Shown here: positions 1 to 50,241 of the stretch, piece by piece
Layout: every line of letters starts with the position of its first letter
Numbering within the stretch: the first letter of the stretch is position 1
Source of the DNA: a virus
IMG/VR virus record: IMGVR_UViG_3300028883_000003
Coordinates: 54,181 to 118,180 of that record
DNA: 64,000 nt
Reading direction: 5' to 3' (one strand)
Position numbers and translations under genes: made by a program
Notes under the pieces: generated by a model
Database searches by the model: none
The model's input: only the letters and a program-made list of their open reading frames with translations
Told to the model about the DNA's origin: nothing

Positions 1-2035
1 TATCATTTTTCAACAATTCATTAATCTGTTCTAAACATTGTTGTTCAGTAGCAAAAAACACCATATGTTTTCCATCAGTAAACATATCTTCTAAATTGGG
101 AACATATTGGTTTAGCCCTACTCCGCCAACAGCCATGGCTTGCAAATAACGATCAGAAAAGTACAATGGAACATCATTAACAATGTTGGTATTCAAAATA
201 ATTTTTGCCCTATTTAAAACTTTAACATGGTCAGCATTAAATACACCATCTTTTGCATATGGTTTAAGTTTGTCAGGCCAAGCACCATTACCAAATATTT
301 TTATTTTTACCCCATTATCAACCAAATACTCAAGTAATTTTAGTCTTGGTTCACTGTGTGGTGTGCCAACAAAAACTACGTCAATATCCTTTTCAATTTC
401 AGGAATTGGTTTATATGTGTTTGGATCAGGAGCAATAATACCAAATTCACAAGGTCGTTGGGTTTGTGCAAAAACTCTAGATAAAAGCTCTGGTGCCCCG
501 GTATGCCAAAATGATTTATGACAAACCCTGCTTAATTCAGCAAACCACTGTTCTACTTGTCTTCGGTTATCAACATACCAACAAGCCAATTTAATCTTAG
601 GCATAAGTTGGTTAATACTATTTAAAACTTGAGGATGAATATTTTGTCCACCACATATCAAAACCATCTCCGGTTCATTGTGTAGGGTGTCATTAACCAA
701 TTTATAAGTAGCTTCAATTGGGTTGTTGTTGCACTTCTTCAAAGTAACACGATAGTCATGAGTTAAGACTTTGTATCCAAAATCCTTTTCTAATGTTCTT
801 TTTATAAAGTGTTCATTTCTAAATGCTCCTAATGGGCCACTACTATCAAAAGAACCCACTAAAAGAATTCTTTTCTTTTTAGGGTTTTTGTCAGCAAAGA
901 AAATTTCGTTGTAAACTTCCTGTGCTGTATGATAGGCCATACATTCGCAGTTATTAAATTTTTCTGTATATTGGCAAGGAGAACATGGCATTCTTTTGTT
1001 TAAAATGGTGACATCTTTACCTAATGGTAAATTCTTTGCAACCATCGTCGGAGCAAAAATAGCATAAGTTTTAGCTCCTACTGAAGACGCGATATGCGTG
1101 GGGCCAGTATCATTGCCAATATACATTTTGCAATTTTGTAAAACAGTAGCTAATTGAGGAATAGAAAGTTTACCCATTAAACCAAGCTCAACATTAGGTG
1201 GCCATTCCTTTTCTTTAGCTTCTTTATAATCTTCTTCATCTCCAATCATCACTATTTTGTAATGGGAGAATTTCTTGTTAATCAACTCTGCCAACTCAAC
1301 GTAGTGTGGCCAACGCTTAACATCCCACGTTCCATTACCAAGACGCAAAGCAGTATCACCAAACACAATGTAAGGAGCATATTTAGCTTTATCAACATTG
1401 CCCATCTCTTGAATTGGTCTTTTGTACAAGTCAAGTTTCTCCATTAGAAGCTGGAGCTTATCTAATTCTTCATCCTTAGCTGTTTCACAATGAGTAGGTG
1501 GTAAATCTCCACTGCAATCAAGAAAATCATTAATACCCATATGCTGTAAAGACTCATGAAACATTTTAAACTCAGCTGTAATAATAGCTTTTGAATATTG
1601 AGTTAACAATTGACCATATTGGTTTAAAGTGTTAGCACTCCAAATAGTGGCATAGACTAAATCATAATGTTTGTAATCAAAATCAGTTATTACATTGTCA
1701 ACGCATTCCCAACCACGGATTACGCTCGCCGCCGGTTCTTTACACCAAACTGTGATCTTAAGCAACGGATGTTCATGTTTCAAACTACGGATGGCAGGAG
1801 TAAGCATAACCATGTTACCAATGCCTTCTTCCATAATTATTAACAGCGAACTAACTTTAGTATTTTGGTACAAAGAATATAAATTCTGACTAAGCATGTT
1901 AGCCAAATTAATACCTTGAGATTCTAATTCATGTCTTTTCTCAGGAGAAATCGACAGATATTGTTTTAACAAATCTCCGGTCAGCTTGTCAACTTGTTCT
2001 TTTACTGCAAAAGATAATTTTATTTGTTTTCCCAT
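1..2035 (-). CDS. Two-domain glycosyltransferase: N-terminal GT9 (heptosyltransferase-like) plus C-terminal CgeB/Glyco_trans_1_2-like domain; 3'-truncated by the window edge
   Basis: Not in the ORF track because there is no stop in the window. ATG at 2035 overlaps the HNH stop (TAATG). My manual translation is open to base 1, with EEGIGNMVMLTPAIRSLK, KRWPHYVELA and IGNDTGPTHIAS (GT9), then DVVFVGTP and SDRYLQAMAVG (CgeB-like). Confidence 0.85.
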   Translation of the reverse strand, partial: MGKQIKLSFAVKEQVDKLTGDLLKQYLSISPEKRHELESQGINLANMLSQNLYSLYQNTKVSSLLIIMEEGIGNMVMLTPAIRSLKHEHPLLKITVWCKEPAASVIRGWECVDNVITDFDYKHYDLVYATIWSANTLNQYGQLLTQYSKAIITAEFKMFHESLQHMGINDFLDCSGDLPPTHCETAKDEELDKLQLLMEKLDLYKRPIQEMGNVDKAKYAPYIVFGDTALRLGNGTWDVKRWPHYVELAELINKKFSHYKIVMIGDEEDYKEAKEKEWPPNVELGLMGKLSIPQLATVLQNCKMYIGNDTGPTHIASSVGAKTYAIFAPTMVAKNLPLGKDVTILNKRMPCSPCQYTEKFNNCECMAYHTAQEVYNEIFFADKNPKKKRILLVGSFDSSGPLGAFRNEHFIKRTLEKDFGYKVLTHDYRVTLKKCNNNPIEATYKLVNDTLHNEPEMVLICGGQNIHPQVLNSINQLMPKIKLACWYVDNRRQVEQWFAELSRVCHKSFWHTGAPELLSRVFAQTQRPCEFGIIAPDPNTYKPIPEIEKDIDVVFVGTPHSEPRLKLLEYLVDNGVKIKIFGNGAWPDKLKPYAKDGVFNADHVKVLNRAKIILNTNIVNDVPLYFSDRYLQAMAVGGVGLNQYVPNLEDMFTDGKHMVFFATEQQCLEQINELLKND

Positions 2036-10374: not shown

Positions 10375-13300
10375 ATGCACAAACTAATTGTTTTGTCAGC
10401 AATGTTTTTGGCTTTATTGTCGTTGTTTTTAGCTGTACCATCTTTGGCTACAGTAAATGTTTCGTTGACAATTAGTCAAGCAGATGCTACATATTTACGA
10501 GCCATACCAATTCAGGACTCGGCAGGTCGAGGAGTTTCTGAAAATTGGGGGTTAGCCCTAAATGCCACCAAAGATACTTTAATTTGGGTAGACTTATCTG
10601 GTGCTGCTCTTGGCTCCAGCATTTCTGCATCAGAGTTAGCTGATGAGGATTGGGGAGATGTCTCGATTTCCTCTGGCGTGGCTAGTGTTGAAGATTTAAC
10701 AATTTCTGGCGAAACCGCTGGTGATATTTTACATTTTAATGGTTCTAATTGGGTACGTTTAGCCATTGGTACTGTTGGCCAAGTGTTAACTGTCAATAGT
10801 GGAGAAACTGCTCCAGAGTGGGATGCTGCTGGTGGTGGAATTGCCGATCTTGCTACGCTATTTGCTTATTTCCATCGAGATTACTTTGATACTACTTCGG
10901 ATATTGTTGGTGATTCAATTACGGTTTTATTGGCTGACTCTGCTGGTATTTCTTTGAAGGCTGTTCAAGATGCTAGTGGCAATACAATAACAACTACTTA
11001 TGCCCCAGTTGCTACTCCTACGTTTACTACTTCAATTGGAATTGGTTCGACAACCATAACTGAAGCTGAATTGGCTGCTTTGGATAGTGTTGCCAGTGTT
11101 GACGGGTTGGCTATAACTGGTCAGACAGCTGGTGACATTCTGTGTTTCTATGGTGGAGCTTGGAATTTAGTAAATGCTGGTTCGGCTGGTCAGGTTTTGG
11201 AGATGCAAACTGGCGACACGACTGTTGGTTGGGGGACCGATGATGGTGCTGGTGCGGCCTCAATTGAAAACGATGTATATGGTTCTGGCTGGAACGATGA
11301 TATTACAAATGGTGCTTCTCAAAATGCTATTTATGATTATTTACATCAAATGGACACAGATGATGATGGTGATATTGATAATTTAGATGGTACTTTTATT
11401 GATGCTGGTGGAACTCAAGCATTAACAGGTAGCTGGGCTGCTGGTGATTTTAATATAACAGGTTTAAATAAGGTTGAAACTGATTCTATTCAGTTTACTA
11501 GCCACATGATTGTGGGAGCAACGGCAATTACTCCGACTGAAGTTAGCTATTTATCTGGCGTTACGTCGGCTATTCAGACTCAACTTGATGGTCAGGATGA
11601 AATCACGGAGTTAGGTTCTGGAAACTGGAAGGTTTATTACTCCAATGGTTCAGGAGCAATTATAGAATTAGCACTTGGTACTAATGGGCAGGTTTTAACT
11701 TCCAATGGTACTACATCTGCTCCCACCTTCGAAACCCCTTCTGGTTCTGGTCTTACATATTTTACCGAAGGTGATGATAACGATACTTCAACATTTACAG
11801 CCACTGCCCCGAATACTGTTATAGGTTTTGCCAGTTCAATAACTATGCAGGGAAACTCTGTTGATGGTGCTCAGCATATTACTGCGGACACTGTTTTTGC
11901 TGATGTCTATTTATCTACGGGTGATGTGTCTGGTAGTATTACACTTGAAGGAATTACTTCGGGTGGCTTTACCTTGGGAGTTCTCGATGTTGCTGGTAGT
12001 CTTGTTGATGTGTATCTTCCTACGGTAGATGGTACTCAAAACCAATTTTTGATGTCGGATTCCGGGGCCGGTACTGATAGTTTGGTGTGGGCAACAATAG
12101 ATTTTTCATTTGTTAGTGGAGAGATTGCCGATACTCAGATTGCTGATGGTGCTGTAGATGGTGGTTCAGGTGGCGAGATTGCCGATCACACAATTGATGC
12201 TAATGATATTAAGTGGACTTCCACACCGGGTTCGGGAGAAGATGATTATCTTGTTTCTTACGACTATGCCAGTGAAAGTTTTACAGCCGTCGCAGGAGGA
12301 GCGGGTGAAATTAACACAGCCTCTAACCAAGGAGCTGGTTATAAATTATATGAACAAAAAACAACTTATGATCTTGAATTCAAAACCATTACAGCGGGTA
12401 CTGGCATTTCTTTAGATACGGCCACTGCTAATCAGTTAAATATTTCGATTAGTTCAATTGATTCCACTTTGTTTAACCAAACTCAAACTGATGCCTATGT
12501 GAATTTATTAGTAAATGGTTATATTGACACTACAACTTTGGACACTATTGAATATTCCCATAAAGCAATTGCTGATGCGAGTGGTAACACGATAACAACC
12601 ACTTATGCTCCTATAGATAACCCGACGTTTACTACCGCAATTACGATAGGTTCGGCTGGTATAAGTGAAACAGAGTTGGAGATTTTGGATGGTGCCACTG
12701 TTACAACTACGGAACTTAATGTGCTTAGTGGCATTCCCGGAACCTTGACAGTTACCGAACTTGGGTATGTTGATGGTGTTACTTCATCAATACAAAATCA
12801 GATAAATGCAATTGCTGTGTTTTGGGACACTGTTACTAATGCTAATACTTTGCAAGCTACGGGTACTACTGATTCTGCATTTTTGCGAATAATAAATGAT
12901 GGTGACTCTGTTACTAGATTTAGTGCTCCTACTGGGGCTAAGTTTAGTTTTGAGGGAGACGGAATTTGGACAAATATACCATATTTAAGTTCGGATACAG
13001 TTGCTGCGGCTGTGTTTGATATGACTGGTGGTAAGATACTTGATGGTTCTGACGATATACAAAGTTTTTCTGCTGGGGACTTAGAGGTTTTGAGCAATTC
13101 TTTATATATAAAACAGGATGCTGTTGATACAACCGAATTAAATATGGGGCTATCTGGAATCTTTACTGGGAGTATTTTATATAGTGGTTCATTAGAAATT
13201 CCTAATAGTGACAACCCTACTACTGATGCATCCGGCGAACTTGCAGTTGACCAAAATGCTTCTGCTCTTGAGGTTTATGACAGTACACAAACAGTTTCTG

Positions 13301-13674
13301 TTTTAATACCGTTGTACAACCCTATTCAAGCTGCAATTGCTTCTCCTGATTTACTAGAGGATACCATTACTATTTTTCAGGTTAATTCTTTATTATATCC
13401 GTATGGTATTGGTTTGTTGCAGGCAGAATTAATTGTTAATGATACTGGAACCGCTTATTCAATTCAGCTTGAAGAATGGACAGGAAAGCAACACAGAGCA
13501 AGAGCGGGATATATAGATACACTAACAACAACATCTGATTCTTCTTATACGAGTTCTATTTCGTTTAATGATGGTGACTTTGCTACGGGTAACCAAATTA
13601 GAGCAATAGTGCCATCTACCGAAGTTGACGAAATATACCTTTCTTTAGTATTCTTTGTCAAAGAGGGTGATTAA
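10375..13674 (+). CDS. Signal-peptide-bearing tail/head-fibre-like protein (1099 aa)
   Basis: Sec signal MHKLIVLSAMFLALLSLFLAVPSLA; fibre repeats GxxGQVLT (x3), DASGNTITTTYAP (x2) and TE(L/V)xxL(D/S)GxT. Confidence 0.75.
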   Translation: MHKLIVLSAMFLALLSLFLAVPSLATVNVSLTISQADATYLRAIPIQDSAGRGVSENWGLALNATKDTLIWVDLSGAALGSSISASELADEDWGDVSISSGVASVEDLTISGETAGDILHFNGSNWVRLAIGTVGQVLTVNSGETAPEWDAAGGGIADLATLFAYFHRDYFDTTSDIVGDSITVLLADSAGISLKAVQDASGNTITTTYAPVATPTFTTSIGIGSTTITEAELAALDSVASVDGLAITGQTAGDILCFYGGAWNLVNAGSAGQVLEMQTGDTTVGWGTDDGAGAASIENDVYGSGWNDDITNGASQNAIYDYLHQMDTDDDGDIDNLDGTFIDAGGTQALTGSWAAGDFNITGLNKVETDSIQFTSHMIVGATAITPTEVSYLSGVTSAIQTQLDGQDEITELGSGNWKVYYSNGSGAIIELALGTNGQVLTSNGTTSAPTFETPSGSGLTYFTEGDDNDTSTFTATAPNTVIGFASSITMQGNSVDGAQHITADTVFADVYLSTGDVSGSITLEGITSGGFTLGVLDVAGSLVDVYLPTVDGTQNQFLMSDSGAGTDSLVWATIDFSFVSGEIADTQIADGAVDGGSGGEIADHTIDANDIKWTSTPGSGEDDYLVSYDYASESFTAVAGGAGEINTASNQGAGYKLYEQKTTYDLEFKTITAGTGISLDTATANQLNISISSIDSTLFNQTQTDAYVNLLVNGYIDTTTLDTIEYSHKAIADASGNTITTTYAPIDNPTFTTAITIGSAGISETELEILDGATVTTTELNVLSGIPGTLTVTELGYVDGVTSSIQNQINAIAVFWDTVTNANTLQATGTTDSAFLRIINDGDSVTRFSAPTGAKFSFEGDGIWTNIPYLSSDTVAAAVFDMTGGKILDGSDDIQSFSAGDLEVLSNSLYIKQDAVDTTELNMGLSGIFTGSILYSGSLEIPNSDNPTTDASGELAVDQNASALEVYDSTQTVSVLIPLYNPIQAAIASPDLLEDTITIFQVNSLLYPYGIGLLQAELIVNDTGTAYSIQLEEWTGKQHRARAGYIDTLTTTSDSSYTSSISFNDGDFATGNQIRAIVPSTEVDEIYLSLVFFVKEGD

Positions 13675-14939
13675 TGCGGTATATATTATATTTATTGTTA
13701 TTGTGTTTGCTTGTACCAACTATTGACGGTGCGGATTGGTCTTTTACTATTTCAGGGGATGATACCGCCGACGTTGACGATGCTGATTTATGGAGCACGT
13801 CATCTACGTTACTTCGTGGTGATACTTCTACAACGATGTGGGTAGGGACCAATAGTGGGGAACGTTGCGGTTGGGTTCATTTCGTAAATTTAGATGATAG
13901 TCTTGCCACATATCCGGGAGTTGTTGATTCTATCCTTTTGATTGCTGCTATTGGTGCAGGCGAGCCACTGATTGACACTACCGGGGATGACGATTCTCTC
14001 TGGTTACTTGTGTCCCCTGTCAGAAAAATCCCGGTTGAGGCAGAGGTTTCGTGGGACACTTGTAACAGCGGGGAGGAATGGACAACTGCTGGTGCTAAAG
14101 ATATTTCGGATGCGTATCAGACGGCCTTAGATACGACAGGCCCTATTGTGTTTGAAGACTATTCATCTCTTGACACTGTGCATTTATGGGTGGACCCACA
14201 AAGCTTACTGAACAGCAATAACGGCTGGATTATTCGCCCACTTTGCGAAGGTGATGGTAATATTCAGGTGGTTTTTGCAACAAGTGAGGATGGTAATCCG
14301 GGGTTTTCTTTGGTTGTTTACGGGCATACAGAGGCAATAGTAAGTGCAACAACAGATACAGTTTCTTATAGCTATAATGATGCTGGTTTTACAACAGTGT
14401 GGAGTACGACTGGTACGACTGGCAGGCTTGGAGAAACTGGGATGGGTGATTGGTATAAGTCCTGTATAAGGTTTACAAGTATTAATGTTGACACAAATGC
14501 CACGGTTGATTCGGCTTTTATATATGTTACCGGTGGTGGTTTAGGGTCGGGATTTGGGAGTATATATGCCAGAATTTATGCTGTTAATGTAGGCGATGCT
14601 GATCCATTTACTACAGCGGTATTTTATGATAGTTTGCTTACTAATCATAAAACGTCTGCATATGTTAATTGGACTACCGACTTCAATTGGTCACCGACTG
14701 GGTCAAATAAAAGTCCTGATATTAAAACTGTTGTACAAGAAGTATTTGATAGGCCTGATTGGGTTATGAGCAATGCTCTTGCTTTTTTGTTTGCTGCTAA
14801 TGGGACTACTACTACCAACGGCGAATATGTTGTTTACAAAACTTATGATGGTAGTGCGTCAACGGCACCATCGTTAGTTTTGTACTTAACTAACCCAGTA
14901 ACTGGACGTTCTACAATAATTCGAATTAATGCGGGCTAA
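13674..14939 (+). CDS. Secreted protein with two DNRLRE-like beta-sandwich domains
   Basis: Signal MRYILYLLLLCLLVPTIDG; DADL...WVG...GWVHF and ...SCIRFTSI...ATVDSAFI...APSLVL patterns. Confidence 0.6.
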   Translation: MRYILYLLLLCLLVPTIDGADWSFTISGDDTADVDDADLWSTSSTLLRGDTSTTMWVGTNSGERCGWVHFVNLDDSLATYPGVVDSILLIAAIGAGEPLIDTTGDDDSLWLLVSPVRKIPVEAEVSWDTCNSGEEWTTAGAKDISDAYQTALDTTGPIVFEDYSSLDTVHLWVDPQSLLNSNNGWIIRPLCEGDGNIQVVFATSEDGNPGFSLVVYGHTEAIVSATTDTVSYSYNDAGFTTVWSTTGTTGRLGETGMGDWYKSCIRFTSINVDTNATVDSAFIYVTGGGLGSGFGSIYARIYAVNVGDADPFTTAVFYDSLLTNHKTSAYVNWTTDFNWSPTGSNKSPDIKTVVQEVFDRPDWVMSNALAFLFAANGTTTTNGEYVVYKTYDGSASTAPSLVLYLTNPVTGRSTIIRINAG

Positions 14940-14940
14940 T

Positions 14941-16401
14941 ATGAAACTTTTTTTTATTTTGTTTTTTATGCTGTTGTTTCCTTCGTTGCTATTTGCAGAA
15001 GTTGACACGGTTTATGATACAATTTATACTTCCACAGATGACGCCCAATTTTTTACTAGTTTGGTAACGGATAGCAATTACTTACGAGCCGGTCAAGCTT
15101 CTAGCGGGTATTTTTTTAACGCTTTGTTACGTTTTGACAATTTACCTATGAAACAAGGTGAGTATCTTGTTAGTGTTGATTTATACTTGTTTGATTTGGC
15201 GTCAGACACAACCATTGGAGAGCCAAGTTTAATAATTAAGTTAGAAGACACAGGCAATTCAACAACTTTTAGTGATTCGGCTGATTATGTTAGTAGGCAT
15301 TGGACAACTGATAGTGTAAATTGGACTGTTACAAGGCCGGAGGGGCTTTATGGTTGGGAATTTGACCCTCGTTACAACAATTATACTGCTGTAACGTCTT
15401 TAGCTCCTTTGTTTCAGACTATTGTGGATAGAGCAGATTTTGATTCTAGTCAGGCAATAACAGTTCGAATTTTTGATAGGCCTTTATATGAGGATGCTTA
15501 TACTACTTTTTATTCCTTTGATGGTGATTCTGCAAAAGCCCCATATTTAGTTATCGTTAGGGTAATACCAAGCACTGATAGTTGTAAAACATACATATGT
15601 ATGTGTGACACAACCTCAATAAGAGACACCTATATACCAGATGGTGAAACTGTTTCTGATACAATGCGGGTTATTTTTTATGTTGCATGCACTCCCGATA
15701 GTGTGCCAAAAGTGTCAGATTCAATTATTGCAGCAGCAGTGGACTCTCTAAATGGTAGTCGACTCTTAGGAAGAGCAAAAATTTATATAAAGTATGATAT
15801 TTTACATATTTATTCTTCTTATTTTACAAACCACGTAATAAATTCTATTGATGCTGAAGCGTTTAAGGGGCTGTATAGTGTACATTTAGATTCTGCGGCA
15901 GCTCACTATTCTGTGGATATAAATGTTGGGGTTTACACGTTTGGTACGTACCCGTGGGACGCGGCTTCTAATCCTTACGATGGCACTTATGGAGCGTGGA
16001 ACGGTGCAACCCCACAAAGAATTTCACATGAGCTTTTGCATACGTTTGGGCTTATGCATACAAACATTGGTACTTTTAGTGAAGTGCTTGGCCCACCTAT
16101 AGATGATGATTTTTTATGTGGCCCATGTTGGGAGTACCCTGTTGAGTATGGACAAAGTGATTCTGTTAGAAATGAGATTGGGGATAAATGCTCAGATACT
16201 GATCCTAGCCCAAAAGTAACACCGGGATTTGTGTGTGGGAGTGATGCATATGATAGTACAAAGTCTGATTCTTTGATTATGCGATCTGTACCACACTCTA
16301 CGCTTGGATTGGCAATTACAGCACAACAGGCTGGTAGAGTACGATGTCATACAAGGTATTGGTTTCCGGGTTGGTATATTTTTATGGGAGAAACACAATA
16401 A
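14941..16401 (+). CDS. Secreted DNRLRE-like domain plus metzincin (M43/pappalysin-like) metalloprotease
   Basis: Signal MKLFFILFFMLLFPSLLFA; HELLHTFGLMH zinc motif; GDKCSDT; Met-turn SLIMRS; many Cys. Confidence 0.75.
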   Translation: MKLFFILFFMLLFPSLLFAEVDTVYDTIYTSTDDAQFFTSLVTDSNYLRAGQASSGYFFNALLRFDNLPMKQGEYLVSVDLYLFDLASDTTIGEPSLIIKLEDTGNSTTFSDSADYVSRHWTTDSVNWTVTRPEGLYGWEFDPRYNNYTAVTSLAPLFQTIVDRADFDSSQAITVRIFDRPLYEDAYTTFYSFDGDSAKAPYLVIVRVIPSTDSCKTYICMCDTTSIRDTYIPDGETVSDTMRVIFYVACTPDSVPKVSDSIIAAAVDSLNGSRLLGRAKIYIKYDILHIYSSYFTNHVINSIDAEAFKGLYSVHLDSAAAHYSVDINVGVYTFGTYPWDAASNPYDGTYGAWNGATPQRISHELLHTFGLMHTNIGTFSEVLGPPIDDDFLCGPCWEYPVEYGQSDSVRNEIGDKCSDTDPSPKVTPGFVCGSDAYDSTKSDSLIMRSVPHSTLGLAITAQQAGRVRCHTRYWFPGWYIFMGETQ

Positions 16402-16402
16402 A

Positions 16403-17182
16403 ATGAACAAAAGCTTTTTTGTGTGTTTATTGTTTTTTTTGATAATTTTTACAGAATTTTCACTTGGTTATGATTCTGCAATAGTTTCGGTTAGTAACGA
16501 CGTGTCTTTAATGGCCAGAGCCGATGCTAATTATACATTCGGTTTGGGGTCTGTATTAAACGTTTATGAAGATGGTATAGGTGCTAATAGAATGACATCT
16601 TTAATAAATATTAATCCAGATTCAATACCTAGTGGTGTTATTCGTCAAGTCAAATTATTTTTGTATAGTTCTACAAATCAGTTAACAACTTTGTACCCAA
16701 GGCTTGATAGTGTAACTGTGGAGGCCCATCGAGTAAAAGAGAATTGGGATTATTATGACACGATTGGCACACTTGCTTCAGGATATAATTTTTCTCCTAG
16801 TTGGCATTATAGAGACACGACTGATATCACAGACACTTTTCCCGTATTGGGTGGAACTCCTTGGTCTGACACCGCTGCTTTTTACCCAACGTCTTCGTAT
16901 ATATTACCAGAAGGCTCAGTAGTGGTGGATTCTTCTTCTGACGCAGAATTTGAACTTACATTGTCCCCTCATACAATGACATATTATAGAGATAATCCAG
17001 ATTTTTGTAATGGGTGGGTACTTACAGCACAGAGCACAGGTAACCAAGGGGAACATTGGAAGAGGCAGTTTTATAGCTCTAAATCGCAAGAACCCTCTAA
17101 GCAACCTTATTATTTAATTGTATATGATGGGTCTGCCCCAAAATTCAAAAATGTTGATGTGTCAGGGGACATAGAATTTTAA
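16403..17182 (+). CDS. Secreted DNRLRE-like domain protein
   Basis: Likely start at 16403, MNKSFFVCLLFFLIIFTEFSLG; ...VEAHRVKENWD...NGWVL...FYSSKS...QPYYLI pattern. Confidence 0.6.
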   Translation: MNKSFFVCLLFFLIIFTEFSLGYDSAIVSVSNDVSLMARADANYTFGLGSVLNVYEDGIGANRMTSLININPDSIPSGVIRQVKLFLYSSTNQLTTLYPRLDSVTVEAHRVKENWDYYDTIGTLASGYNFSPSWHYRDTTDITDTFPVLGGTPWSDTAAFYPTSSYILPEGSVVVDSSSDAEFELTLSPHTMTYYRDNPDFCNGWVLTAQSTGNQGEHWKRQFYSSKSQEPSKQPYYLIVYDGSAPKFKNVDVSGDIEF

Positions 17183-17213
17183 TATGGCGTACAATTTTAA
17201 TGGAGTAGAATAA

Positions 17214-19082
17214 ATGAATAGGTTAGTTTTTGTTTTAGTTTTTGTTTTGTTGTTGTGTGTGAGTCCAGTTGTGGCAAGGAATTTAGTGACACTTACTTCT
17301 GGCGATTTACCATACAGTGCCAGTTCTAACGATAGTATTCAGATTGATGGCAATCACATCACATCCAATGGCACAGCCATAAACGTGGAGAGTGTGAATA
17401 ATGTTTATTTTGATTTTGGCACAGACACACTTGAGTACGGGGCTAATGGTGGCAATAACGAATATGGGTTGCGTTTTCAAAACGCCTATAACTGTACTGT
17501 TAATGGTGGTACGATTATGCGTGCCGTTGGACCGGCTTCGACAGACGGTGAGAGTAATCACACTATTTATATGCACGGAACTTGTTATGGGCTAACCTTC
17601 AACGACGTAGACCTTATCACCGACGGATACAACGGACACTGCGTTCTTGGTTATGGTCCTCACTATTCAATAAATTTTGATGGTGGAACATGGCGAAGTG
17701 ATTCTAGAAGTTTTTCCGATAGACATAATTATACCGGGGCTGTTGCATGGTTGGGAACACCCGGTAGCGGAGGTGATTACGCATATTGGATTCATGGTGT
17801 TTCTATTGTCGATGGACCAGCACAGGGAATAATAACCATAAGTGGCCGCACCATTATTGATAGCTGTGATATTAGCACCGATCATATAAATACTGGACCA
17901 ACCGGCTCCGACGGGAACCAATATCTTATTCTATTAACTGGTTGTACCAACCCAACATCCGTCACTAATTGTACACTTGTCAGCGGCAGTGATAGGGGAG
18001 GGAGTCGGGGAGTTCTTATAGAAAATTCAAACGGTACAGCAGATGAAAGAATAGTAGTACGTAACAATTATTTTGACATACACAACGGTCCTGACAGCGA
18101 AGGGGGGATGGGTGTTTATGGTTCGTGTAGAATAATTAGATTGCGGACGCTTCATTCCGGTTCTCAAAGATGGTCGAGTTATATAGATATTCGTAAAAAT
18201 ACTGTATATGGGACATCAGATTTTAATGAGAGCACAACACATATAGGCCGAGAGGTGATTGGCATTGACTGTAACATGGCGTCTCAAGGATTAGGTGGGG
18301 CACACCATATTAGGGTTGATAGCAATAAGGTTTATATGAGAACTTTAGGGACCAATGTGTATAACAAGGCAGCCGCTCTATACTCATATGTTAATCCCGA
18401 TACAACGGGGATGTCTTGTTCTTACAATGAGTTTTATGGTTCAGATGTTGTTGTCCGACTTGCTGATGGGGGGGAAGATGGTAACTCTGGCAACGGGATT
18501 GGCTGTACTGAATTTTTTATGCATAACAATATTTTAGGTTTTCTTGATACAACGGGCAATGACTCCCTTACGTATGACACTGGATACACTACGTGGAGTG
18601 TTGCCGTTGGTAACGGTGACGCGACCCCAATTGCTGTCGACAACGTATCACGGGACGCAACATATCTCAATGGAGCATCTGACACTGATATTTTATTTAG
18701 GGTTGCCCCCGGCCCCACCGATATAGCTATGCAAAAGACCGTTGGTGTCTATGTTAAAGATTCCGATGCTGACCCTATTGTTGGAGCTACTGTTCGGCTT
18801 ATAGATGACGGCGGTTCTGTGGTTTGGAGTAATATAACCGACGTAAACGGCTACGTGGCTGAGGCTGCTACTTATTTATATGATTCCGTTGGTACTTCGG
18901 TTGATAGTAATTACAACCCCTTTACACTTAGGGCGATCTACGGCACCGACTCCACTGATGTTTCCCGTATTGTGGCATGTAATAATGGGGATACAACAGT
19001 AGTATTGGATATTGAAGGGGAGCCAAATATTGTTCCAGTTAATATTTCAGGTAAAGTGGTAATTAAAGGAAAGAAAAAATGA
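17214..19082 (+). CDS. Secreted right-handed beta-helix (pectin-lyase-like) protein with a C-terminal Ig-like domain
   Basis: Signal MNRLVFVLVFVLLLCVSPVVA; G/N-rich beta-helix coils (IVVRNNYF, IRKNTVY); VKDSDADPIVGATVRL...TDVNG domain. Confidence 0.65.
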   Translation: MNRLVFVLVFVLLLCVSPVVARNLVTLTSGDLPYSASSNDSIQIDGNHITSNGTAINVESVNNVYFDFGTDTLEYGANGGNNEYGLRFQNAYNCTVNGGTIMRAVGPASTDGESNHTIYMHGTCYGLTFNDVDLITDGYNGHCVLGYGPHYSINFDGGTWRSDSRSFSDRHNYTGAVAWLGTPGSGGDYAYWIHGVSIVDGPAQGIITISGRTIIDSCDISTDHINTGPTGSDGNQYLILLTGCTNPTSVTNCTLVSGSDRGGSRGVLIENSNGTADERIVVRNNYFDIHNGPDSEGGMGVYGSCRIIRLRTLHSGSQRWSSYIDIRKNTVYGTSDFNESTTHIGREVIGIDCNMASQGLGGAHHIRVDSNKVYMRTLGTNVYNKAAALYSYVNPDTTGMSCSYNEFYGSDVVVRLADGGEDGNSGNGIGCTEFFMHNNILGFLDTTGNDSLTYDTGYTTWSVAVGNGDATPIAVDNVSRDATYLNGASDTDILFRVAPGPTDIAMQKTVGVYVKDSDADPIVGATVRLIDDGGSVVWSNITDVNGYVAEAATYLYDSVGTSVDSNYNPFTLRAIYGTDSTDVSRIVACNNGDTTVVLDIEGEPNIVPVNISGKVVIKGKKK

Positions 19083-19096
19083 AAGAAAGAACACTA

Positions 19097-19678
19097 ATGA
19101 AAACATTATTTATCTTTTTGTGTTTGTCACTTTTACCAGTTATGCTAAATGCTGATGCCACATATAGTTATGGTGGTGTTTTTTATTACAATGGCAATCT
19201 GACTACGCCAGATTCTTTGCATGTGTATGTGTCTTATCAGCCGTCTGGAGATACTGTCAGTTATGTATCCCTTCCTGATTCGGCAGTATGGGATACAACT
19301 ATAGATACAACTGATGTTACTGACAATTATGCAATATTAAGTTACCATATATATTTTGGGACTAATTTGTTAATTACTCAAGAAACTATTAATTTACGAT
19401 TAGATACAAGTAGTATTTCTCCACAAGTATACGCAATGACAGGTGATTCTGTAAAGACAGCGATAGAAGCACAAGGTAGTCAATTATGGGGCTTATCAGT
19501 TTTTTGGGGTACGTTGGATAGTTCACTTATGCTGATGTACCCACTTGATGGTACTACCCCAAAGGACAGTGTTCAAATTACAGACAGTTCTGGTACAGTT
19601 TTGATGTCTATAATTTATAAGCACAGTAATACAAATACAGTATTAGACTCAACTATTGTTTATCATAGGGTTCCATAA
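19097..19678 (+). CDS. Secreted hypothetical protein, D-S/T rich
   Basis: Likely start at 19097, MKTLFIFLCLSLLPVMLNA signal peptide. Confidence 0.65.
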   Translation: MKTLFIFLCLSLLPVMLNADATYSYGGVFYYNGNLTTPDSLHVYVSYQPSGDTVSYVSLPDSAVWDTTIDTTDVTDNYAILSYHIYFGTNLLITQETINLRLDTSSISPQVYAMTGDSVKTAIEAQGSQLWGLSVFWGTLDSSLMLMYPLDGTTPKDSVQITDSSGTVLMSIIYKHSNTNTVLDSTIVYHRVP

Positions 19679-19881
19679 TGGCTTTTACTTGGGATGACAG
19701 GTTTGATGCTAAGCCGGGGACGTTTGATCCTAGGTTTCAAGGAGGAGAAACAACTTCTTCTAGTTTGACTATAGGCACTTTAACTATGGTTGGGGTAGTT
19801 ATAAACTCAAGGGCGGCTTGTTCTTACGTTACTAATTTAACTATATATAGATCAGAAATAGGTTCTGTTTCTGTGTATTAA
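19678..19881 (+). CDS. Small hypothetical beta-rich protein
   Basis: 67 aa, coupled to the upstream stop; no signal peptide. Confidence 0.55.
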   Translation: MAFTWDDRFDAKPGTFDPRFQGGETTSSSLTIGTLTMVGVVINSRAACSYVTNLTIYRSEIGSVSVY

Positions 19882-19890
19882 GGAGTTAAT

Positions 19891-20307
19891 ATGTCCTCAT
19901 CTGTTCAATATTTGGATGAAGATAATAGTTACAAATTTGTTTTTTCTTTAACAAATTCAGAAACTGGTGCTAAAATTGCATTGGCTTCCATCTCTTCGGT
20001 GCAGTGTACTGAATTTTATTATAATCCTAATTTGTTGACTAGTGACAGAAATCACTTGGCTACAATAAACAGTAGATATAACCAAAACGTAAAGAATGCC
20101 AATGATGTAACTATAACTTCTTCTGGCACAATAAGTTGGGTGGTTCAACCTGAAGATACTGTGTTCCTTAATTCTTCAAATGCCAATGCCGAAGAGGAAT
20201 TACATATTGCTCTTTTTATGTGGACCTATGGAACTGGTGGAAGCAAACAAAACTCACATACATTTTTTAATTATGTTCGCCATGTACCTTATATTTCGAG
20301 TATGTAA
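19891..20307 (+). CDS. Ig-like/BppU-like putative virion adaptor protein
   Basis: 138 aa, beta-strand pattern, AGGAG ribosome binding site; no signal peptide. Confidence 0.45.
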   Translation: MSSSVQYLDEDNSYKFVFSLTNSETGAKIALASISSVQCTEFYYNPNLLTSDRNHLATINSRYNQNVKNANDVTITSSGTISWVVQPEDTVFLNSSNANAEEELHIALFMWTYGTGGSKQNSHTFFNYVRHVPYISSM

Positions 20308-20726
20308 TGTTTAAATTTGGCAAAAATTCTGAAAAAAAATTAGAAAAAGTTCACTTTTTACTACAAAAAGTTTTGAAAAGGGCGATAATAAGTACAAGAG
20401 TGGATTTTTCTATTGTGTCTGGATATAGGGATAAGGAGATGCAAGATTCTTTATTTCGAAGTGGGCACAGTAAATTACGATGGCCAAATAGTAAGCATAA
20501 TTCTGACCCATCATTAGCCGTTGACATAGCGGTTTATAGAAATGGTAAGTTGGATTGGCAGGACTTAAATAGCTATTATTATTTGGCCGGGTTAATTCAA
20601 GCTATCGCCGATAGTATGAATATTACTTTGAGATTTGGGTTGGATTGGGATAGAGATGGTGATTTTAATGACCAAACTTTTTTAGATGCGGGGCATATAG
20701 AGTTAGTTAATGAGGACACAGAATGA
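20307..20726 (+). CDS. Endolysin, peptidase M15 family (L-Ala-D-Glu peptidase-like)
   Basis: SGYR...Q...SKHN...AVDI...LRFGLDW...DAGHIEL zinc-peptidase motifs. Confidence 0.88.
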   Translation: MFKFGKNSEKKLEKVHFLLQKVLKRAIISTRVDFSIVSGYRDKEMQDSLFRSGHSKLRWPNSKHNSDPSLAVDIAVYRNGKLDWQDLNSYYYLAGLIQAIADSMNITLRFGLDWDRDGDFNDQTFLDAGHIELVNEDTE

Positions 20727-22204
20727 AATTAAAAGGTAAACGGCGTAAATTTGTAATGACGGCTATTTCGGGTAATGAGGAAAAATGGGTTAAACAGTGG
20801 GCTGAATCTGTAATGAAGGCAAATCCAGATTTAGTTATTATTAATCTGACCCAGTATGACGACAATTCAGAGGAACTATTTAGAAAACATATACCAGAAG
20901 ATAAATTAAAGCTGGTTAAATATCCTTGGAAAAAAGACTTTAGCGAAGCTAGAAACCATACTCTGGACTTAGTTCCAGATGATACAGACATGGTAATGTT
21001 TTTGGATTTAGACGAAGTATTTACTCCAGAGTCTTACTCCGCTTTGGAAGAAGTTTTACATAATACTGAGTTAGATATCCAAATAATGACAACTATTTAT
21101 AATAAAGTGAGCAAGGAGTCAATGCTTGCTAGTCTTTATTACCCTAGGTTGTTTCCGTGGCGTAATCGTAAGGGTGAGTTACTTCACCCTCATTTTGAAA
21201 GTGAAGTACACAATCAATTAGTGTACCCATCTGGCGTCAAACAGGAGGCGATACGTAGCAAAATTGGAATTTTTCATTATGGCTACGCATTGGACGCCAA
21301 AGCTATGGCGGCTAAGCATAAGCGTTCGGAAGAGCTTATACGACAACAACTTAGCAAAAATCCCGATGACTACTTCGGTCATTTAAACTTGGCTCAATTA
21401 TTGCGGGCTAAGGGGGATGCTAAAGGAACAGCTAAACACGCTCAAAAAGTTGTTGATTTGGTAAGTCCAAAGGTTAATTCTGGTGACCCAAGAATGCTTC
21501 ATGCCTATTTAATGGCCAAAGAACAATTGGCTACTGCTTATTTGGTTTTAAAGAGATTTCAGGAAGTTATCAAAGTTTCTGAGGAAGCTCTGGAGAAAAA
21601 GCCGGATTACTTAGACGCACAGATGAATTTAGCTAATGCTTATTTGGAACTAAGAGATTTAGATAAAGCAGAATTTTGGTTAAAGAGATATTTGTTTGTG
21701 CGTAGTCAGTATGATGAATTAAGGGATAATACTAACCTAATCTTAAATCATCTTAATTCAACTTTTATGGCTTTATATCATTTGGGCTCTATTGAAATAG
21801 CCAGAGGAAATATAGACAAGGCTAAAGATTACTTTGAAAGAAGCTATAAGGCTGAGCCAAAGTTTGCAGATGTATTTATCAGATATCTTGATTGTGTGCG
21901 TAGATTAACTAATAAAATAGATTCTGAATTAGTTAATAAATATATTGTTGAAAATTCTGATAAAGCTCATATGCTATATGAGTATTTTGGTGATTTAGAA
22001 TTAGAGCGTTCAAATATTGAAAATGCAAAGTTTAATTATTACCAAGCGTATTATTTAAACGAAAAAAGTGAAGAGCACGGTAGAATAGAGAGTAAATGGA
22101 AATCCATAGAGGATGCCTTTGGTGGTGTTTCACAGATATTTTTTAATTCTGCTGGTAAACACCAAGAGTTAAAACAACGATTAGGAGACAAAAATGGTTC
22201 CTGA
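20723..22204 (+). CDS. GT2 glycosyltransferase with TPR repeats
   Basis: WKKDFSEARNHTL, FLDLDE (DxD), EVHNQL and HYGY, followed by TPR-like helices. Confidence 0.88.
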   Translation: MKLKGKRRKFVMTAISGNEEKWVKQWAESVMKANPDLVIINLTQYDDNSEELFRKHIPEDKLKLVKYPWKKDFSEARNHTLDLVPDDTDMVMFLDLDEVFTPESYSALEEVLHNTELDIQIMTTIYNKVSKESMLASLYYPRLFPWRNRKGELLHPHFESEVHNQLVYPSGVKQEAIRSKIGIFHYGYALDAKAMAAKHKRSEELIRQQLSKNPDDYFGHLNLAQLLRAKGDAKGTAKHAQKVVDLVSPKVNSGDPRMLHAYLMAKEQLATAYLVLKRFQEVIKVSEEALEKKPDYLDAQMNLANAYLELRDLDKAEFWLKRYLFVRSQYDELRDNTNLILNHLNSTFMALYHLGSIEIARGNIDKAKDYFERSYKAEPKFADVFIRYLDCVRRLTNKIDSELVNKYIVENSDKAHMLYEYFGDLELERSNIENAKFNYYQAYYLNEKSEEHGRIESKWKSIEDAFGGVSQIFFNSAGKHQELKQRLGDKNGS

Positions 22205-31588: not shown

Positions 31589-34500
31589 ATGGCTGATGCT
31601 CCTTTTATTATAACTACCCAAATAGATACTAAAGGTATTAAAGCTGGGCTTGCAGAGATTGAGGCTTTGTTAGTTAAGTTTAATCCTAAGGGTTCGTTTA
31701 ATAGTCTTATAAACACTAAAGAATTAGATGTTGCTAAGTCAAAAGTTAAACAATTAACTCTTGAATTAAACAAAACCAAGGCTGCTCTTGAGAAGGCAGC
31801 AACTAATACTGGTAGGCTTGCCACAAACACTAAAAAGACCTCTAATGCTTTGGCAGATGTGTCTAGACGTGTGTTTGTTTGGGGGTCGATGTCAGCTTTA
31901 ATTTTTGGGGCATTACAAAATCTTAAAGAGTTTTATGATTTAACAATTCAAGTTAATACTTCTCTTGCAGAACTAAGAAAGGTTTTACCTAGTGATACTG
32001 ACTTTGGTGCATTAAAAGGTGAAGCATTTAAATTATCCATTGATTTTGGTACTGATCCTTTAGATGTTCTTCAGGTTTTAAAGCGTTTTGGCCAAGCTGG
32101 TTTGTCTGCTCAAGAAGCTGTTGAGGCTACCAGAACGGCTTTGCTTGCTTTAAATACTACTGGTGCTGATACTGAACAAGTGTTCAATGCTATCATTGGT
32201 GCCAACAGAATTTTTGGTATTGCTTTTGAAGATTCTGGTCGCGTGATTGACAAAATCATGAGATTACAGGCGGATCTCGCTGTTGATTCTAAAGATTTAA
32301 TTGCTTCCATTCAGGCTATTGGTCCTGCTATTACTTCGTTAGGTGGTGATATTGACGATCTTCTTTCCAACATTGCAGCTTTAGCTGAAGCGGCTCGTGT
32401 ATCAGGTAAAGAAGCAGCCAACTCCTTAAAACGTGTACTTGCTCGTTTAGTATCTAAGGAAGGTATTACTGCTCTAGAAAAATTAGGTGTTACGGTTTTT
32501 GACACAGCTAAAAACTTCAGACCTTTAAGAGACATTCTAGAAGACGTTTCAACTAAATATAAAGAAGCTTCACAGGTTGAGCAACAGCAATTAGCAGTTG
32601 TACTTGCTCAGGTTCGTCAGTATCCTAAATTAATTGCTTTGTTAAACAACATGGATAGACAGCAGGAAGCATTAGCCAAATCACAAAACGCTTATGGTGA
32701 TGCAACTATTGCTAATCAGGTTCAGTTGGATAGCTATGCAAAACAATTAAGTATTGCACAAAACCAAGTTAAAGAGTTTGGCGAGACAGCTATTTTAAAG
32801 GGTGAAATAGTAGAAAACTGGGTTGCATTTCATCAAGTTATAGGGGATTTAGCAACGGCTCTAACGTCTGTCGCCGGTCCTCTTACCAAGTTTCTTAGTT
32901 TGGCTGGTACTGCTGCTGGTGTTATTTTCTTGTCTAAGTGGGTATTGCAATTAAAATATTCATTAGCATTAACAGCAGCTGAAATGAAGGCTACTGCTGT
33001 AGCGGCAAATTTGGCTACTAGAAATGTACAAATATTTGGGTTGGCAGTGCAGTTTACTGCTAATACTTTGCGTTTGTTAACTGGTATTGGCATTGCTGTG
33101 TCTGCTCTCTTTTTAGCAATTGAAGTTGGTCGTCGTAAAGCCAACAAAGAAGAAATTCGTTATAACAAACTGATTGAACAAAGTACGGAATCTATTAAGA
33201 AGTTTAAGGATTCTCTTCGTGGGATTGCTGTTAACAATATTATTACTACGGACGTTGAGGAAAAATTTAATTCATTAACTAAATCTTTGGCAGCATATAC
33301 AAGGGCTCTTAGTATTGGACAGGCTTCTACCGAGGAATTTGTAAAATCGCTTGGCAAAACATTTGGCGTGGATGTTAGTTTGTTAAGTGAACAGCAATTA
33401 AAAGATTTACTTGAGACATTAAAGGATGTTGAAAGAGAACTTGATCCTAATATTTTACTTCCGTTCTACGATGTTGTAAATCGTGGTACAGAGGTTATGA
33501 TTAGCAATATAAATACTGGTACAGATGAATACAAAAAATTTAGAGCTGCTTTAGCCGAATATTTTGAGCCCAAAGGAATTAAAAATTATGCTGATCAATT
33601 AGCCGAATTAGAAAAACTGGAAGCTAAGAGAAGACAACAACAACTTGATACAGGAAGAACTAGTGTTTATCTACCGTCTGATTTGTCGGGTACTGGAAGA
33701 AACTTAGCTGCTTTTATTGATGGTGTTAAAGGAAGTCAGGAATCTGTTACAGCGTTATGGTTTATTGTATCTGGTTTACGTCGTACGTTAGGGTTGTCAG
33801 CTAAATCTTTTGAAGAGGTTGCTGCTTCTTCCGGTAAACTACAAGATGTCATTGGAAGATTAGACGAATTAAATACCAAATTAACAGTTTATAATGACCA
33901 AATAAAAAGAACCGGCGTTGTTTCTGCTGACTATAAAAAAACACAACAAGATTATGATGATGTATTAAAGGGTGGTGTTGATATTTTTGGCGATCTTGTT
34001 GGTATTCAAGATATTTACAAAAAAGCTTTGGATGGCCTAGTTAAGTCACAAAGTGGTGCTATCGTTCAGATAGATGCCTATTCTGGTAGAGCAAAACAGT
34101 TTGCTGTCATTATTTCTAAATTAGCTGGTGGTTTCAAAGAATACGCGGAATCGGAATTAAAGAGTTCGGGTAACGCAGCTGCTTTTGCAATTAATATTAA
34201 GGAAGGACAAAAGGCTGTTCTTGCAATGTTAAAAGCCATTGAAGCTGGAAAGGGTGGTATATTTTCTATTGACTTCAACCAGCATGCTTATTTGAAGGCT
34301 GTTAAAGCTAGCACTGCTGTTGTTTTGTCTAACTTTGAGGCACAGTTTAAGGCTATTGATGTTGTGCGTAGGGTGTTAAAGGATACAGGTTCGGCTTTTG
34401 ATATAAACCAGCAAGGATTGAATACTGTTGATACTGCTCTTAACCAATTGAACAGGCAATTAGGGTCCAACGAAGAAGAGTTAGCTAATATTAAGGTTCA

Positions 34501-36388: not shown

Positions 36389-36391
36389 CTT

Positions 36392-36793
36392 ATGGCTCTA
36401 CAACGAATTAGATTTAGTAGTAATTCAGATGGCTCATCCCCATACACCTTAGTTCTAAACCCAAGTAAATTAAGTATACCAACCAATTCTGAATCTTCAT
36501 CTATGCGGTCTTTAGATGGTGGGCAAGTTATTCAACAATCTTATTTTGATGCCAGAGAAGTTATTTTAGGTTGGGCGAGAATACCTTTAGACTATACTGG
36601 TTATCAGACAATGGCCTCAACACTAAAGGGATATATTGGCAGCACAAAGTATGTTAATTATGGCACTGTCGAATATAGAATTGGTACTATTGCTACATGG
36701 CAAAAAGTAACTGTTGCCGATGTTCAAATGGACATTGAATCGGGTGGGAAACTAAAGGGCAATTTAACTGTAACATTGATACCGGAACCATAA
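36392..36793 (+). CDS. Putative distal tail protein
   Basis: 133 aa directly after the tape measure gene; SMRSLDGGQVIQ pattern. Confidence 0.5.
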   Translation: MALQRIRFSSNSDGSSPYTLVLNPSKLSIPTNSESSSMRSLDGGQVIQQSYFDAREVILGWARIPLDYTGYQTMASTLKGYIGSTKYVNYGTVEYRIGTIATWQKVTVADVQMDIESGGKLKGNLTVTLIPEP

Positions 36794-36794
36794 T

Positions 36795-46315: not shown

Positions 46316-46706
46316 ACCCAACCATTGTGTATTGCACTATCCACTGATTAGATTGCCAAGCATCAAAGCTACTTTCAACGGGGTGGTTACATTGGTGCTC
46401 AACAATTAGAGAAAGATTATTGTTAATTTTGTAATCAGCCCCAATTGTGTATCCTATTCGATAAGGAGCACCGTTTAACGTACCTGATTTAGGATAGGCC
46501 CAAGTTTCAACAGTACTGAATATGGTTAATTTGTTATAGGCACTGCTTATACCTAATTCGGCGTAATAATTAAAAGACCTGTCTTGTTTGTCAATGACTA
46601 TGGATTTAATATTTGCGTAACCAAAAGTTAATTCCCCTTTTGGTTTGCAGTTAACATGAATCGGTAATAGCACAATAATAATTATAGTAGTAATTAACTT
46701 TTTCAT
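46299..46706 (-). CDS. Small secreted outer-membrane beta-barrel-like protein
   Basis: Signal MKKLITTIIIIVLLPIHVNC; alternating amphipathic strands; C-terminal VGFKLTY with a terminal aromatic residue. Confidence 0.6.
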   Translation of the reverse strand: MKKLITTIIIIVLLPIHVNCKPKGELTFGYANIKSIVIDKQDRSFNYYAELGISSAYNKLTIFSTVETWAYPKSGTLNGAPYRIGYTIGADYKINNNLSLIVEHQCNHPVESSFDAWQSNQWIVQYTMVGFKLTY

Positions 46707-47503: not shown

Positions 47504-47528
47504 TTTTTCTCCTTTTGTTATATTATCA

Positions 47529-47590
47529 AACACAGAAAAGTTTTTAAAAGTTCCCGGTTTTTTCGGGAACCTTTTTGTCTCGGTTGTGTT
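47529..47590. promoter_or_regulatory. Back-to-back ECF-like promoters P3 (-) and P4 (+) forming a GTTCCCG-N7-CGGGAAC palindrome
   Basis: P3: gttcccg at 47550-47556, N18, aac at 47529-47531. P4: cgggaac at 47564-47570, N17, gtt at 47588-47590. Confidence 0.6.
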
Positions 47591-47615
47591 GTAGGGGTAC
47601 GGAAAGGAGAAAGAA

Positions 47616-48005: not shown

Positions 48006-48006
48006 T

Positions 48007-48369: not shown

Positions 48370-48372
48370 AAG

Positions 48373-48648: not shown

Positions 48649-48663
48649 TATAAAGGAGTAATT

Positions 48664-50145: not shown

Positions 50146-50149
50146 GAAA

Positions 50150-50226: not shown

Positions 50227-50241
50227 AAATAAGGACAGTAT

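Follow-up and report, generated by a model that had tools for sequence, protein, structure and literature searches.

We analyzed a 64,000-nucleotide stretch of the viral record IMGVR_UViG_3300028883_000003 (hereafter the window), which makes up the right-hand part of a complete phage genome of 118,180 bp with a GC content of 35%, and found that six consecutive genes (p1–p6, positions 10375–19678) encode proteins that carry bacterial export signals together with a marked excess of the Bacteroidota-type O-glycosylation sequon D-(S/T)-(A/I/L/V/M/T). Because these export signals coincide with about three times the number of sequons expected by chance, we consider it probable that the six proteins are exported by the Sec pathway and then O-glycosylated by the host at these sites. 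The motif is known to direct O-glycosylation of non-cytoplasmic proteins, engineered copies of it are glycosylated, and its enrichment in non-cytoplasmic proteins is found mainly in GTDB Bacteroidota (PMC12871550). An initial annotation of the window had proposed that the phage routes these proteins through the periplasm of a host resembling the Fibrobacterota–Chlorobiota–Bacteroidota (FCB) superphylum, where host enzymes would glycosylate them to give a glycan shield or host mimicry. The signal peptides, an enrichment specific to Asp and to position 3, and selection at the level of the motif lend indirect support to routing and glycosylation, and the proposal is thus partly supported; a shield or mimicry would be a conjectural purpose.

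Sequon enrichment is specific and follows the export signal

All six N-termini (6/6) have the pattern of a type I signal peptide, with a short basic stretch, a hydrophobic core of 12–18 residues and a small-x-small cleavage site, spanning 21–26 amino acids (aa) in total. A canonical lipobox was found in none of the six (0/6). The signal-peptide regions are kept in orthologues despite divergence of the sequences.

Our recount gave 22, 10, 15, 6, 8 and 8 sequons in p1 to p6 (69 in total), exactly the numbers of the initial annotation, and also agreed with its observations that Ser or Thr follows 11 of the 15 Asp residues in the smallest protein, p6, and that the tape measure and the 1816-aa tail protein contain about 5 sequons each (5 and 5). 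We then ran the composition-shuffle comparison that it had suggested. With 2000 composition-preserving shuffles per protein, the expected numbers were 9.7, 3.5, 3.1, 1.3, 3.4 and 1.7, and each of the six proteins was enriched (p = 0.0005–0.0135). Pooling the mature chains yielded 68 sequons against 22.3 expected (3.05x, z 10.4), distributed along the chains and not in tandem repeats.

The enrichment is specific to Asp at position 1 and to the residues published for position 3. With Glu, Asn, Gly or Lys in place of Asp, the motif occurred in the pooled mature chains at 0.71x, 0.93x, 1.10x and 1.15x the expected number, respectively; D[ST] followed by a residue other than A, I, L, V, M or T occurred at 0.85x, and the reversed motif at 0.96x. 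No consistent enrichment of the Campylobacter-type N-sequon was found. The excess also follows export, as 21 non-exported proteins had an observed-to-expected ratio (O/E) of 0.85x and the tail proteins, used as internal controls, were close to expectation (tape measure, 5 observed vs 4.9 expected; 133-aa protein, 0 vs 0.5; 1356-aa protein, 7 vs 4.8; 1816-aa protein, 5 vs 7.3). Across the whole 118-kb genome, 13 proteins with signal peptides or anchor-like segments held 81 sequons vs 25.1 expected, and the remainder held 66 vs 60.9; small anchored or exported proteins encoded outside the window were likewise enriched.

These controls bear on a structural explanation, in which D-S/T-hydrophobic triplets cap turns or start beta strands and are conserved for folding. 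All six proteins appear beta-rich, Asp is commonly conserved at turns, and two Bacteroidia genomes that we sampled (below) show almost no enrichment at the proteome level, as a purely structural motif would allow. However, neither Asn, Glu or Gly at position 1 nor the reversed motif is enriched, and the tail proteins of this phage, which are also beta-rich and rich in Ser and Thr, are not enriched either. The excess instead tracks the export signal across unrelated folds (fibre, DNRLRE-like, metzincin, beta-helix and small anchored proteins) and extends to non-homologous signal-peptide proteins of related phages, whereas giant BNR_4 beta-propeller proteins that occupy the same slot in two relatives lack it. 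We therefore give the structural explanation little credence.

The sequons are also unusually dense, at about 2.2 per 100 aa in the phage proteins compared with 0.26–0.56 in the bacterial secretomes that we sampled. This difference suggests selection for a heavy coating, which could provide protease protection or masking.

Sequons are conserved as motifs in related phages

The capsid protein of the phage defines a clade that comprises 57 protein clusters, and none of the contigs that carry them is longer than 118 kb. Its relative L001 (capsid 81–82% identical) carries the same six genes at 41–90% identity, with 54 sequons vs 13.3 expected. In L004 (capsid 69–70% identical), the slot holds three signal-peptide proteins, two of which have no sequence relation to p1–p5, with 39 sequons vs 8.9. 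L277 (capsid 60%) has two signal-peptide proteins, whose signal peptides depend on the use of upstream starts, with 36 sequons vs 9.9. Enrichment in the signal-peptide proteins of these three phages is thus 3.7–4.4x. The six genes behave as an exchangeable cassette, of which p6 alone is shared throughout the clade (90% and 36–40% identity); five of its eight sequons persist at 36% identity.

At aligned positions, the Asp of a sequon was retained in 51 of 55 cases compared with 65 of 130 for other Asp residues (p = 6e-9), and whole sequons were retained in 47 of 60 cases compared with 49 of 142 control triplets of the form x[ST][AILVMT] (p = 1.3e-8). Among the 47 retained sequons, 20 show an S-to-T change or a swap between allowed hydrophobic residues. 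As judged from these alignments, conservation acts on the motif and not on single residues, and the motif is under purifying selection in the relatives.

In two more distant relatives, L278 and L279, a single giant BNR_4-domain protein replaces the cassette (2317 aa, L278:1-4333; 1722 aa, L279:1-3720). These proteins, whose N-termini lie outside the retrieved DNA, are not enriched (4 sequons vs 5.3 and 2 vs 4.9), and L278 and L279 may have other hosts. Small lipoprotein-like proteins with weak Dockerin_1 matches adjoin the tail genes in both.

The cassette resembles adhesins and envelope-active enzymes

Searches of p1–p6 against Pfam, PHROG, NCBIfam and PDB sequences returned no match apart from sub-threshold domain hits. 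p1 contains three copies of a G-x-x-GQVL-T...W type repeat (aa 132, 269 and 435), and we take it to be fibre-like because similar repeats occur in phage minor tail proteins. By blastp, the C-terminal half of p2 (aa 221–410) is related to the domain at the N-terminus of p3 (aa 23–216; E 4e-6), a DNRLRE-like beta domain. The C-terminal part of p3 appears to be a metzincin with the zinc site HELLHTFGLMH at aa 367–377, which is kept in the orthologue (HExxHxxGxxH pattern). p3 itself has no Pfam match, but its homologue P0003 carries Peptidase_M43 (PF05572), and p3 reached a structural template modelling (TM) score of 0.48 to an M43 cluster of the Atlas. Against the DNRLRE model NF033679 (cut-off 34), p4 scored 21.9 bits and p3 14.7 bits, and a 245-aa signal-peptide protein of L004 scored 57.2 bits, above the cut-off; p2 is tied to this group only through its blastp match to p3. 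The start of p4 at its signal-peptide ATG is supported by the L001 orthologue, which begins at the same point. p5 appears to combine a right-handed beta-helix with a CarboxypepD_reg/MG3-like C-terminal domain; the beta-helix call rests on Atlas look-alikes only (Beta_helix/NosD clusters, 0.88–0.89; structural TM 0.72 to a bacterial cluster). p6 is predicted to be all-beta, and an AF2 model from a three-sequence alignment gave no confident fold (pLDDT 36.6).

Because no known fibre, tailspike or virion-attachment family was found among the PHROG, Pfam, NCBIfam and PDB matches of p1–p6, the slot, which exchanges rapidly, would seem from these sequence likenesses to contain adhesins and enzymes that act on the envelope or on polysaccharides. 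The phage is long-tailed, and its 1599-aa tape measure and its 1356-aa and 1816-aa distal tail proteins are separate from the cassette. With these large tail-tip proteins, which have no signal peptide, the cassette proteins are not the phage's only candidate host-recognition proteins.

The coordinates of the cassette and of other features in the window are collected in Table 1. Two small proteins separate the portal from the cassette, which lies between the portal and capsid genes and adjoins the endolysin; this position fits either virion appendages or enzymes of egress or the host surface. The 67-aa protein that follows p6 is a possible holin-like membrane protein, and a 138-aa protein stands between it and the M15 endolysin. 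Further on, the 612-aa protein has a weak C-terminal match to the RiboL-PSP HEPN family (25.3 bits, under the cut-off).

Table 1. Features of the window, with positions counted from its first letter (TPR, tetratricopeptide repeat; GT, glycosyltransferase)
Feature	Position	Strand	Remarks
GT9 heptosyltransferase domain fused to CgeB-like GT domain	2..2035	-	Runs past the left end of the window; Glyco_transf_9 81.7 bits, above cut-off
Large terminase	5655-7466
Portal	7476-9617
p1	10375..13674	+	1099 aa, signal peptide, 22 sequons
p2	13674..14939	+	421 aa, signal peptide, 10 sequons
p3	14929..16401	+	490 aa, signal peptide, 15 sequons (z 7)
p4	16403..17182	+	259 aa from signal-peptide ATG (292 aa otherwise), 6 sequons, sub-threshold DNRLRE-like domain
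p5	17214..19082	+	622 aa, signal peptide, 8 sequons, 11 Cys
p6	19079..19678	+	199 aa, signal peptide, 8 sequons
67-aa protein	19678..19881	+	One hydrophobic segment; conserved in L001 and L277
M15-type endolysin	20307..20726	+	139 aa, single domain, no wall-binding domain; phrog_465, E 5e-40
GT2 glycosyltransferase fused to TPR repeats	20723..22204	+	Weak match to SunS-family peptide S-glycosyltransferases
612-aa protein	22194-24032	+	Upstream of capsid genes
Capsid protein	24576-25571
Tail genes (internal controls)	31589..46315	+	Tape measure (1599 aa), 133-aa, 1356-aa and 1816-aa proteins, no signal peptides
Xer-like 'integrase'	46703-47560	-	XerA/XerC/XerD models, E 1e-36 to 1e-30
tmRNA-like element	50150-50226	+	77 nt, tRNA-like domain only

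The genome termini overlap by 127 bp, which places the genome in the direct-terminal-repeat class with a completeness of 100%. A marine sediment metagenome is the only sequencing run that contains the phage, and no RNA data set is listed for the window. The long open reading frame (ORF) of the Xer-like gene starts with GTG and overlaps a gene on the plus strand that has a good ribosome site. Neither an attP or tRNA fragment near this gene nor a prophage relative was found, so the phage is possibly not temperate. Elsewhere in the genome (342-1520, minus strand, locus L006) lies a RuvB-like AAA+ protein with RuvB_N, lid and C-terminal domains, unusual for a phage, that has a hydrophobic N-terminus and a zinc-ribbon insertion.

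Translation signals and secretomes point to a host outside Bacteroidia

Start codons in the phage are preceded by a Shine-Dalgarno (SD)-like word in 64% of genes, with G at 31–41% from -12 to -7 vs 12–18% further upstream, and the SD-like fraction in five relatives is 0.46–0.62. Compared with the values of 0.06–0.13 in Bacteroidia genomes and phages (Table 2), this heavy SD use makes a host of the class Bacteroidia unlikely. To compare candidate hosts, we sampled 200–400 kb each of ten genomes, with a 16S pattern scan leading to named genomes; exact matching of proteins gave the identity of the three Ignavibacteria.

Table 2. SD use and sequon enrichment in sampled genomes and phages (SP, signal-peptide; MAG, metagenome-assembled genome)
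Genome or phage	GC	SD-like fraction	O/E in SP proteins	O/E in other proteins
Saccharicrinis (Bacteroidia)		0.06
Flagellimonas (Bacteroidia)		0.13
Flavobacterium phage 11b		0.08
Bacteroides phage crAss001		0.11
Melioribacter sp. OK-6-Me (Ignavibacteria)	33-37%	0.38	1.71 (z 7.2)	1.14
Melioribacteraceae MAG (Ignavibacteria)	33-37%	0.34	1.53 (z 3.5)	1.08
Ignavibacterium sp. MAG (Ignavibacteria)	33-37%	0.45	1.38 (z 2.4)	1.19
Calditrichaceae MAG	45%	0.42	1.95 (z 7.2)	1.30
Arcobacteraceae MAG	36%	0.58	1.05	1.04
Lentisphaera marina	41%	0.47	1.07	0.82
Parvimonas	29%	0.69	1.20 (20 SP proteins, z 0.6)	0.83
Spirochaetota MAG	45%	0.43	0.74	1.07

Among the lineages sampled, SD use and a sequon-enriched secretome occur together only in the Ignavibacteria and the Calditrichaceae MAG. 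The signal-peptide proteins of the three Ignavibacteria, pooled, had an O/E of 1.60 (z 8.4), with Glu and Asn controls at 0.94–0.97 and D[ST] followed by other residues at 0.76. The preference for L, V and T at position 3 is common to the phage, the Ignavibacteria and the Calditrichaceae, and the Ignavibacteria also match the phage in GC. A Roseithermus genome (Rhodothermia, 69% GC; 0.48x) was set aside, as the ORF caller is unreliable at such a GC content.

The host is most likely an SD-using diderm of the FCB group, for which Ignavibacteria fit best and Calditrichota also fit. The FCB-superphylum-like host of the initial annotation thus fits SD use and these secretomes better than Bacteroidota in the usual sense, given the gap in SD use between the Bacteroidia and the phage. 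These proteome counts also suggest activity of the D-S/T-x system outside Bacteroidia, perhaps with denser use there.

Two further observations point weakly to the same lineage. The 77-nt tmRNA-like element scores 46.2 bits against the Rfam tmRNA model (E 2.9e-16; gathering score 47) in an alignment that passes over about 300 nt of the model, and its acceptor stem has GUG/CAC at positions 5–7 in common with the tmRNAs of the three Ignavibacteria. Heptose-containing glycans have been reported on multiple Ignavibacteria proteins in metaproteomes (bioRxiv 10.1101/2020.12.03.409086), and the phage carries heptose genes of its own (below). No pointer came from the HldE-like protein of the phage, whose homologues lie on other phage-sized contigs and then in mixed taxa, and the N-terminal part of a phage sigma-like protein had no match in the ten genomes. 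Neither Bacteroidota-type nor sigma-70-type promoter consensus patterns are enriched in the phage, which has no bS21 gene.

Several results weigh against export and host glycosylation in such a lineage. Both signal peptides and genes were called with crude heuristics (for the former, not SignalP), and no type IX secretion system (T9SS) C-terminal domain, a signal for outer-membrane secretion, was detected in p1–p6. A 1046-aa slot protein of another relative (L005:2178-5318) has 13 sequons vs 5.3 but no signal peptide, with a stop codon directly 5' of its ATG, and departs for no apparent reason from the association of sequons with export. The class Bacteroidia is known to glycosylate, yet the secretome O/E of our two Bacteroidia samples, in the same crude pipeline, was just 1.06–1.10x, so enrichment at the proteome level is an insensitive marker. 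No capsid-protein relative was found in a genome-contig collection, in 401 Bacteroidota, in 401 genomes of the class of the Melioribacteraceae MAG, in 86 Calditrichota or in a pattern scan of 185,579 species genomes. The initial annotation had named CRISPR spacers as a route to the host, but our search for a spacer or prophage link in 401 and 86 genomes found none: 20-kb DNA searches returned short imperfect matches only, without a CRISPR array at any, although with 2–3 candidates scored per genome this is a weak test. Finally, the closest cultured phages by terminase, at 25% identity, infect Bacillota (Bacillus and Clostridium phages), and blastn and tblastn against cultured phages found nothing nearer.

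This last result, together with the heavy SD use, also favors a host outside the FCB group, such as a member of the Bacillota or another SD-using lineage, in which the sequons would serve an undescribed glycosylation or processing system or would be a relic of an FCB-infecting ancestor. One relative is binned with a Dojkabacteria MAG, the single such label among the cluster names and possibly a mis-binning, and the absence of enrichment in L278 and L279 would fit as well. Such a host keeps some probability because only ten genomes were sampled. However, the terminase identity is low, strong purifying selection on the sequons speaks against a relic, and the samples of Bacillota, Campylobacterota, Planctomycetota–Verrucomicrobiota–Chlamydiota (PVC) and Spirochaetota showed no secretome enrichment. 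The short endolysin and the short signal peptides argue in the same direction, a single-domain endolysin without a wall-binding module and short signal peptides being typical of diderm hosts. We regard a non-FCB host as highly improbable.

Phage glycan genes and the source of the modification

The phage encodes its own glycan enzymes, and the sugars might instead be added by the phage in the cytoplasm before Sec export, either by its GT9 protein with an ADP-heptose pathway or by the GT2-TPR protein. A cluster at genome positions 44516-56215 (L008) contains GmhA-like, reversed-order HldE-like, SDR epimerase, TIM-barrel and FAD mutase-like genes, a GT4-like gene, two methyltransferases and, at its end, the GT9-CgeB-like fusion, all far under NCBIfam equivalog cut-offs. 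A 118-aa membrane-anchored protein within this cluster has 4 sequons vs 0.4 expected. The GT2-TPR gene, 1 kb downstream of the cassette and weakly SunS-like, may encode a cytoplasmic protein glycosyltransferase, judging by this likeness. TibC-type enzymes offer a precedent, being GT9-like proteins that draw on ADP-heptose and work ahead of export (PMC4358343).

However, Ignavibacteria and a Calditrichaceae MAG without such a phage also have secretomes enriched in this motif, as judged by the same controls, which points to a host enzyme. All clade members seen have the GT2-TPR gene shortly before the capsid module; among them are L278 and L279, in which the slot protein shows no enrichment. In PDB sequences, the GT9 domain matched only WaaF (1PSW, the nearest) and another GT9, and not TibC; no D-S/T-x rule has been described for TibC/AAH substrates, and an autotransporter barrel was not found in p1–p6. 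Self-glycosylation by the phage thus seems quite unlikely to us, though less so than the structural explanation or a non-FCB host. A Wzy_C/PglL-type oligosaccharyltransferase domain was not found in the phage.

A proposed route through the host periplasm

To the established signal peptides, enrichment, specificity and conservation, glycosylation by the host would add the following steps. The six genes would be a cassette of variable content whose products, made late in infection with Sec signal peptides that can be cleaved off, comprise a fibre-like protein, DNRLRE-type domains resembling sugar-binding modules, an M43-like metzincin, a beta-helix enzyme-like protein and a small conserved protein. 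Host Sec would move these proteins, unfolded, into the periplasm, where the host's general O-glycosylation system would place a lipid-linked glycan on the Ser or Thr of each sequon. Selection would have packed the sites to their present density, 4–5x that of candidate host secretomes, and the heptose and glycosyltransferase cluster of the phage may modify the glycan. The glycoproteins would then work within the envelope or outside it, whether as enzymes and adhesins set free at lysis or as parts of the particle that join it after lysis.

A more specific version, in which a phage clade of FCB hosts outside Bacteroidia (Ignavibacteria or Calditrichota) routes swappable proteins of host-recognition type through the periplasm for host glycosylation and adds them to the particle after lysis, is in our view doubtful. 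If it were true, part of a tailed virion would be assembled outside the cytoplasm, and the D-S/T-x system would extend beyond the class in which it was defined.

Comparison with known systems

The closest likeness is to the substrates of general O-glycosylation in Bacteroidota (PMC12871550; glycoproteomes of B. fragilis, Tannerella and Flavobacterium), which are likewise non-cytoplasmic proteins with signal peptides and the same sequon. Also in common are an Asp that Glu does not replace, about equal use of S and T, and a preference for L, V, T, A and I at position 3. Unlike those substrates, the proteins described here are encoded by a phage and putatively glycosylated, their site density is 4–8x that of the sampled bacterial secretomes, and the translation signals of the phage differ from those of the class Bacteroidia, where the system was characterized.

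The autotransporter heptosyltransferases TibC/AAH with TibA/AIDA-I (PMC4358343) resemble the phage system in their beta-rich, exported proteins of adhesin type, which are heavily O-glycosylated there on Ser/Thr, and in a genome that provides both ADP-heptose and a GT9-like enzyme. Their substrates, however, are autotransporters that receive the sugar in the cytoplasm and follow no D-S/T-x rule, whereas p1–p6 have no autotransporter domain and the GT9 protein matches WaaF. Mycobacteriophage virions are glycosylated by phage-encoded glycosyltransferases, and the glycans are thought to shield phage proteins. PMC11256854 alludes to this virion glycosylation by phage enzymes. Those phages share with ours glycosyltransferase genes inside the structural operon of a tailed phage, but there the modification takes place in the cytoplasm, on capsid and tail-tube proteins that have neither an export signal nor a host sequon.

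Phage tail fibres and tailspikes are made and assembled in the cytoplasm without an export signal, in contrast to p1–p6, which all have signal peptides. To our knowledge, the particles and host-recognition proteins of tailed phages are built in the cytoplasm, and we know of no bacterial virus that uses periplasmic glycosylation by its host; no published report of exported, sequon-rich phage proteins was found in the literature. If p1–p6 are indeed exported and glycosylated, phages of the FCB group would exploit the glycans of their hosts in the way known from eukaryotic viruses, which would affect the stability of the phages, their recognition of receptors and their antigenicity, and the sequon would serve to predict the hosts of uncultured phages from sequence alone. 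The D-S/T-x system that our genome samples suggest in Ignavibacteria and Calditrichota also bears on when the system arose. Compared with the known systems, what is new here is a clade of large, long-tailed phages with a six-gene exchangeable cassette and a co-resident heptose and glycosyltransferase cluster, together with evidence that would place the host, and hence the sequon system, outside the class Bacteroidia.

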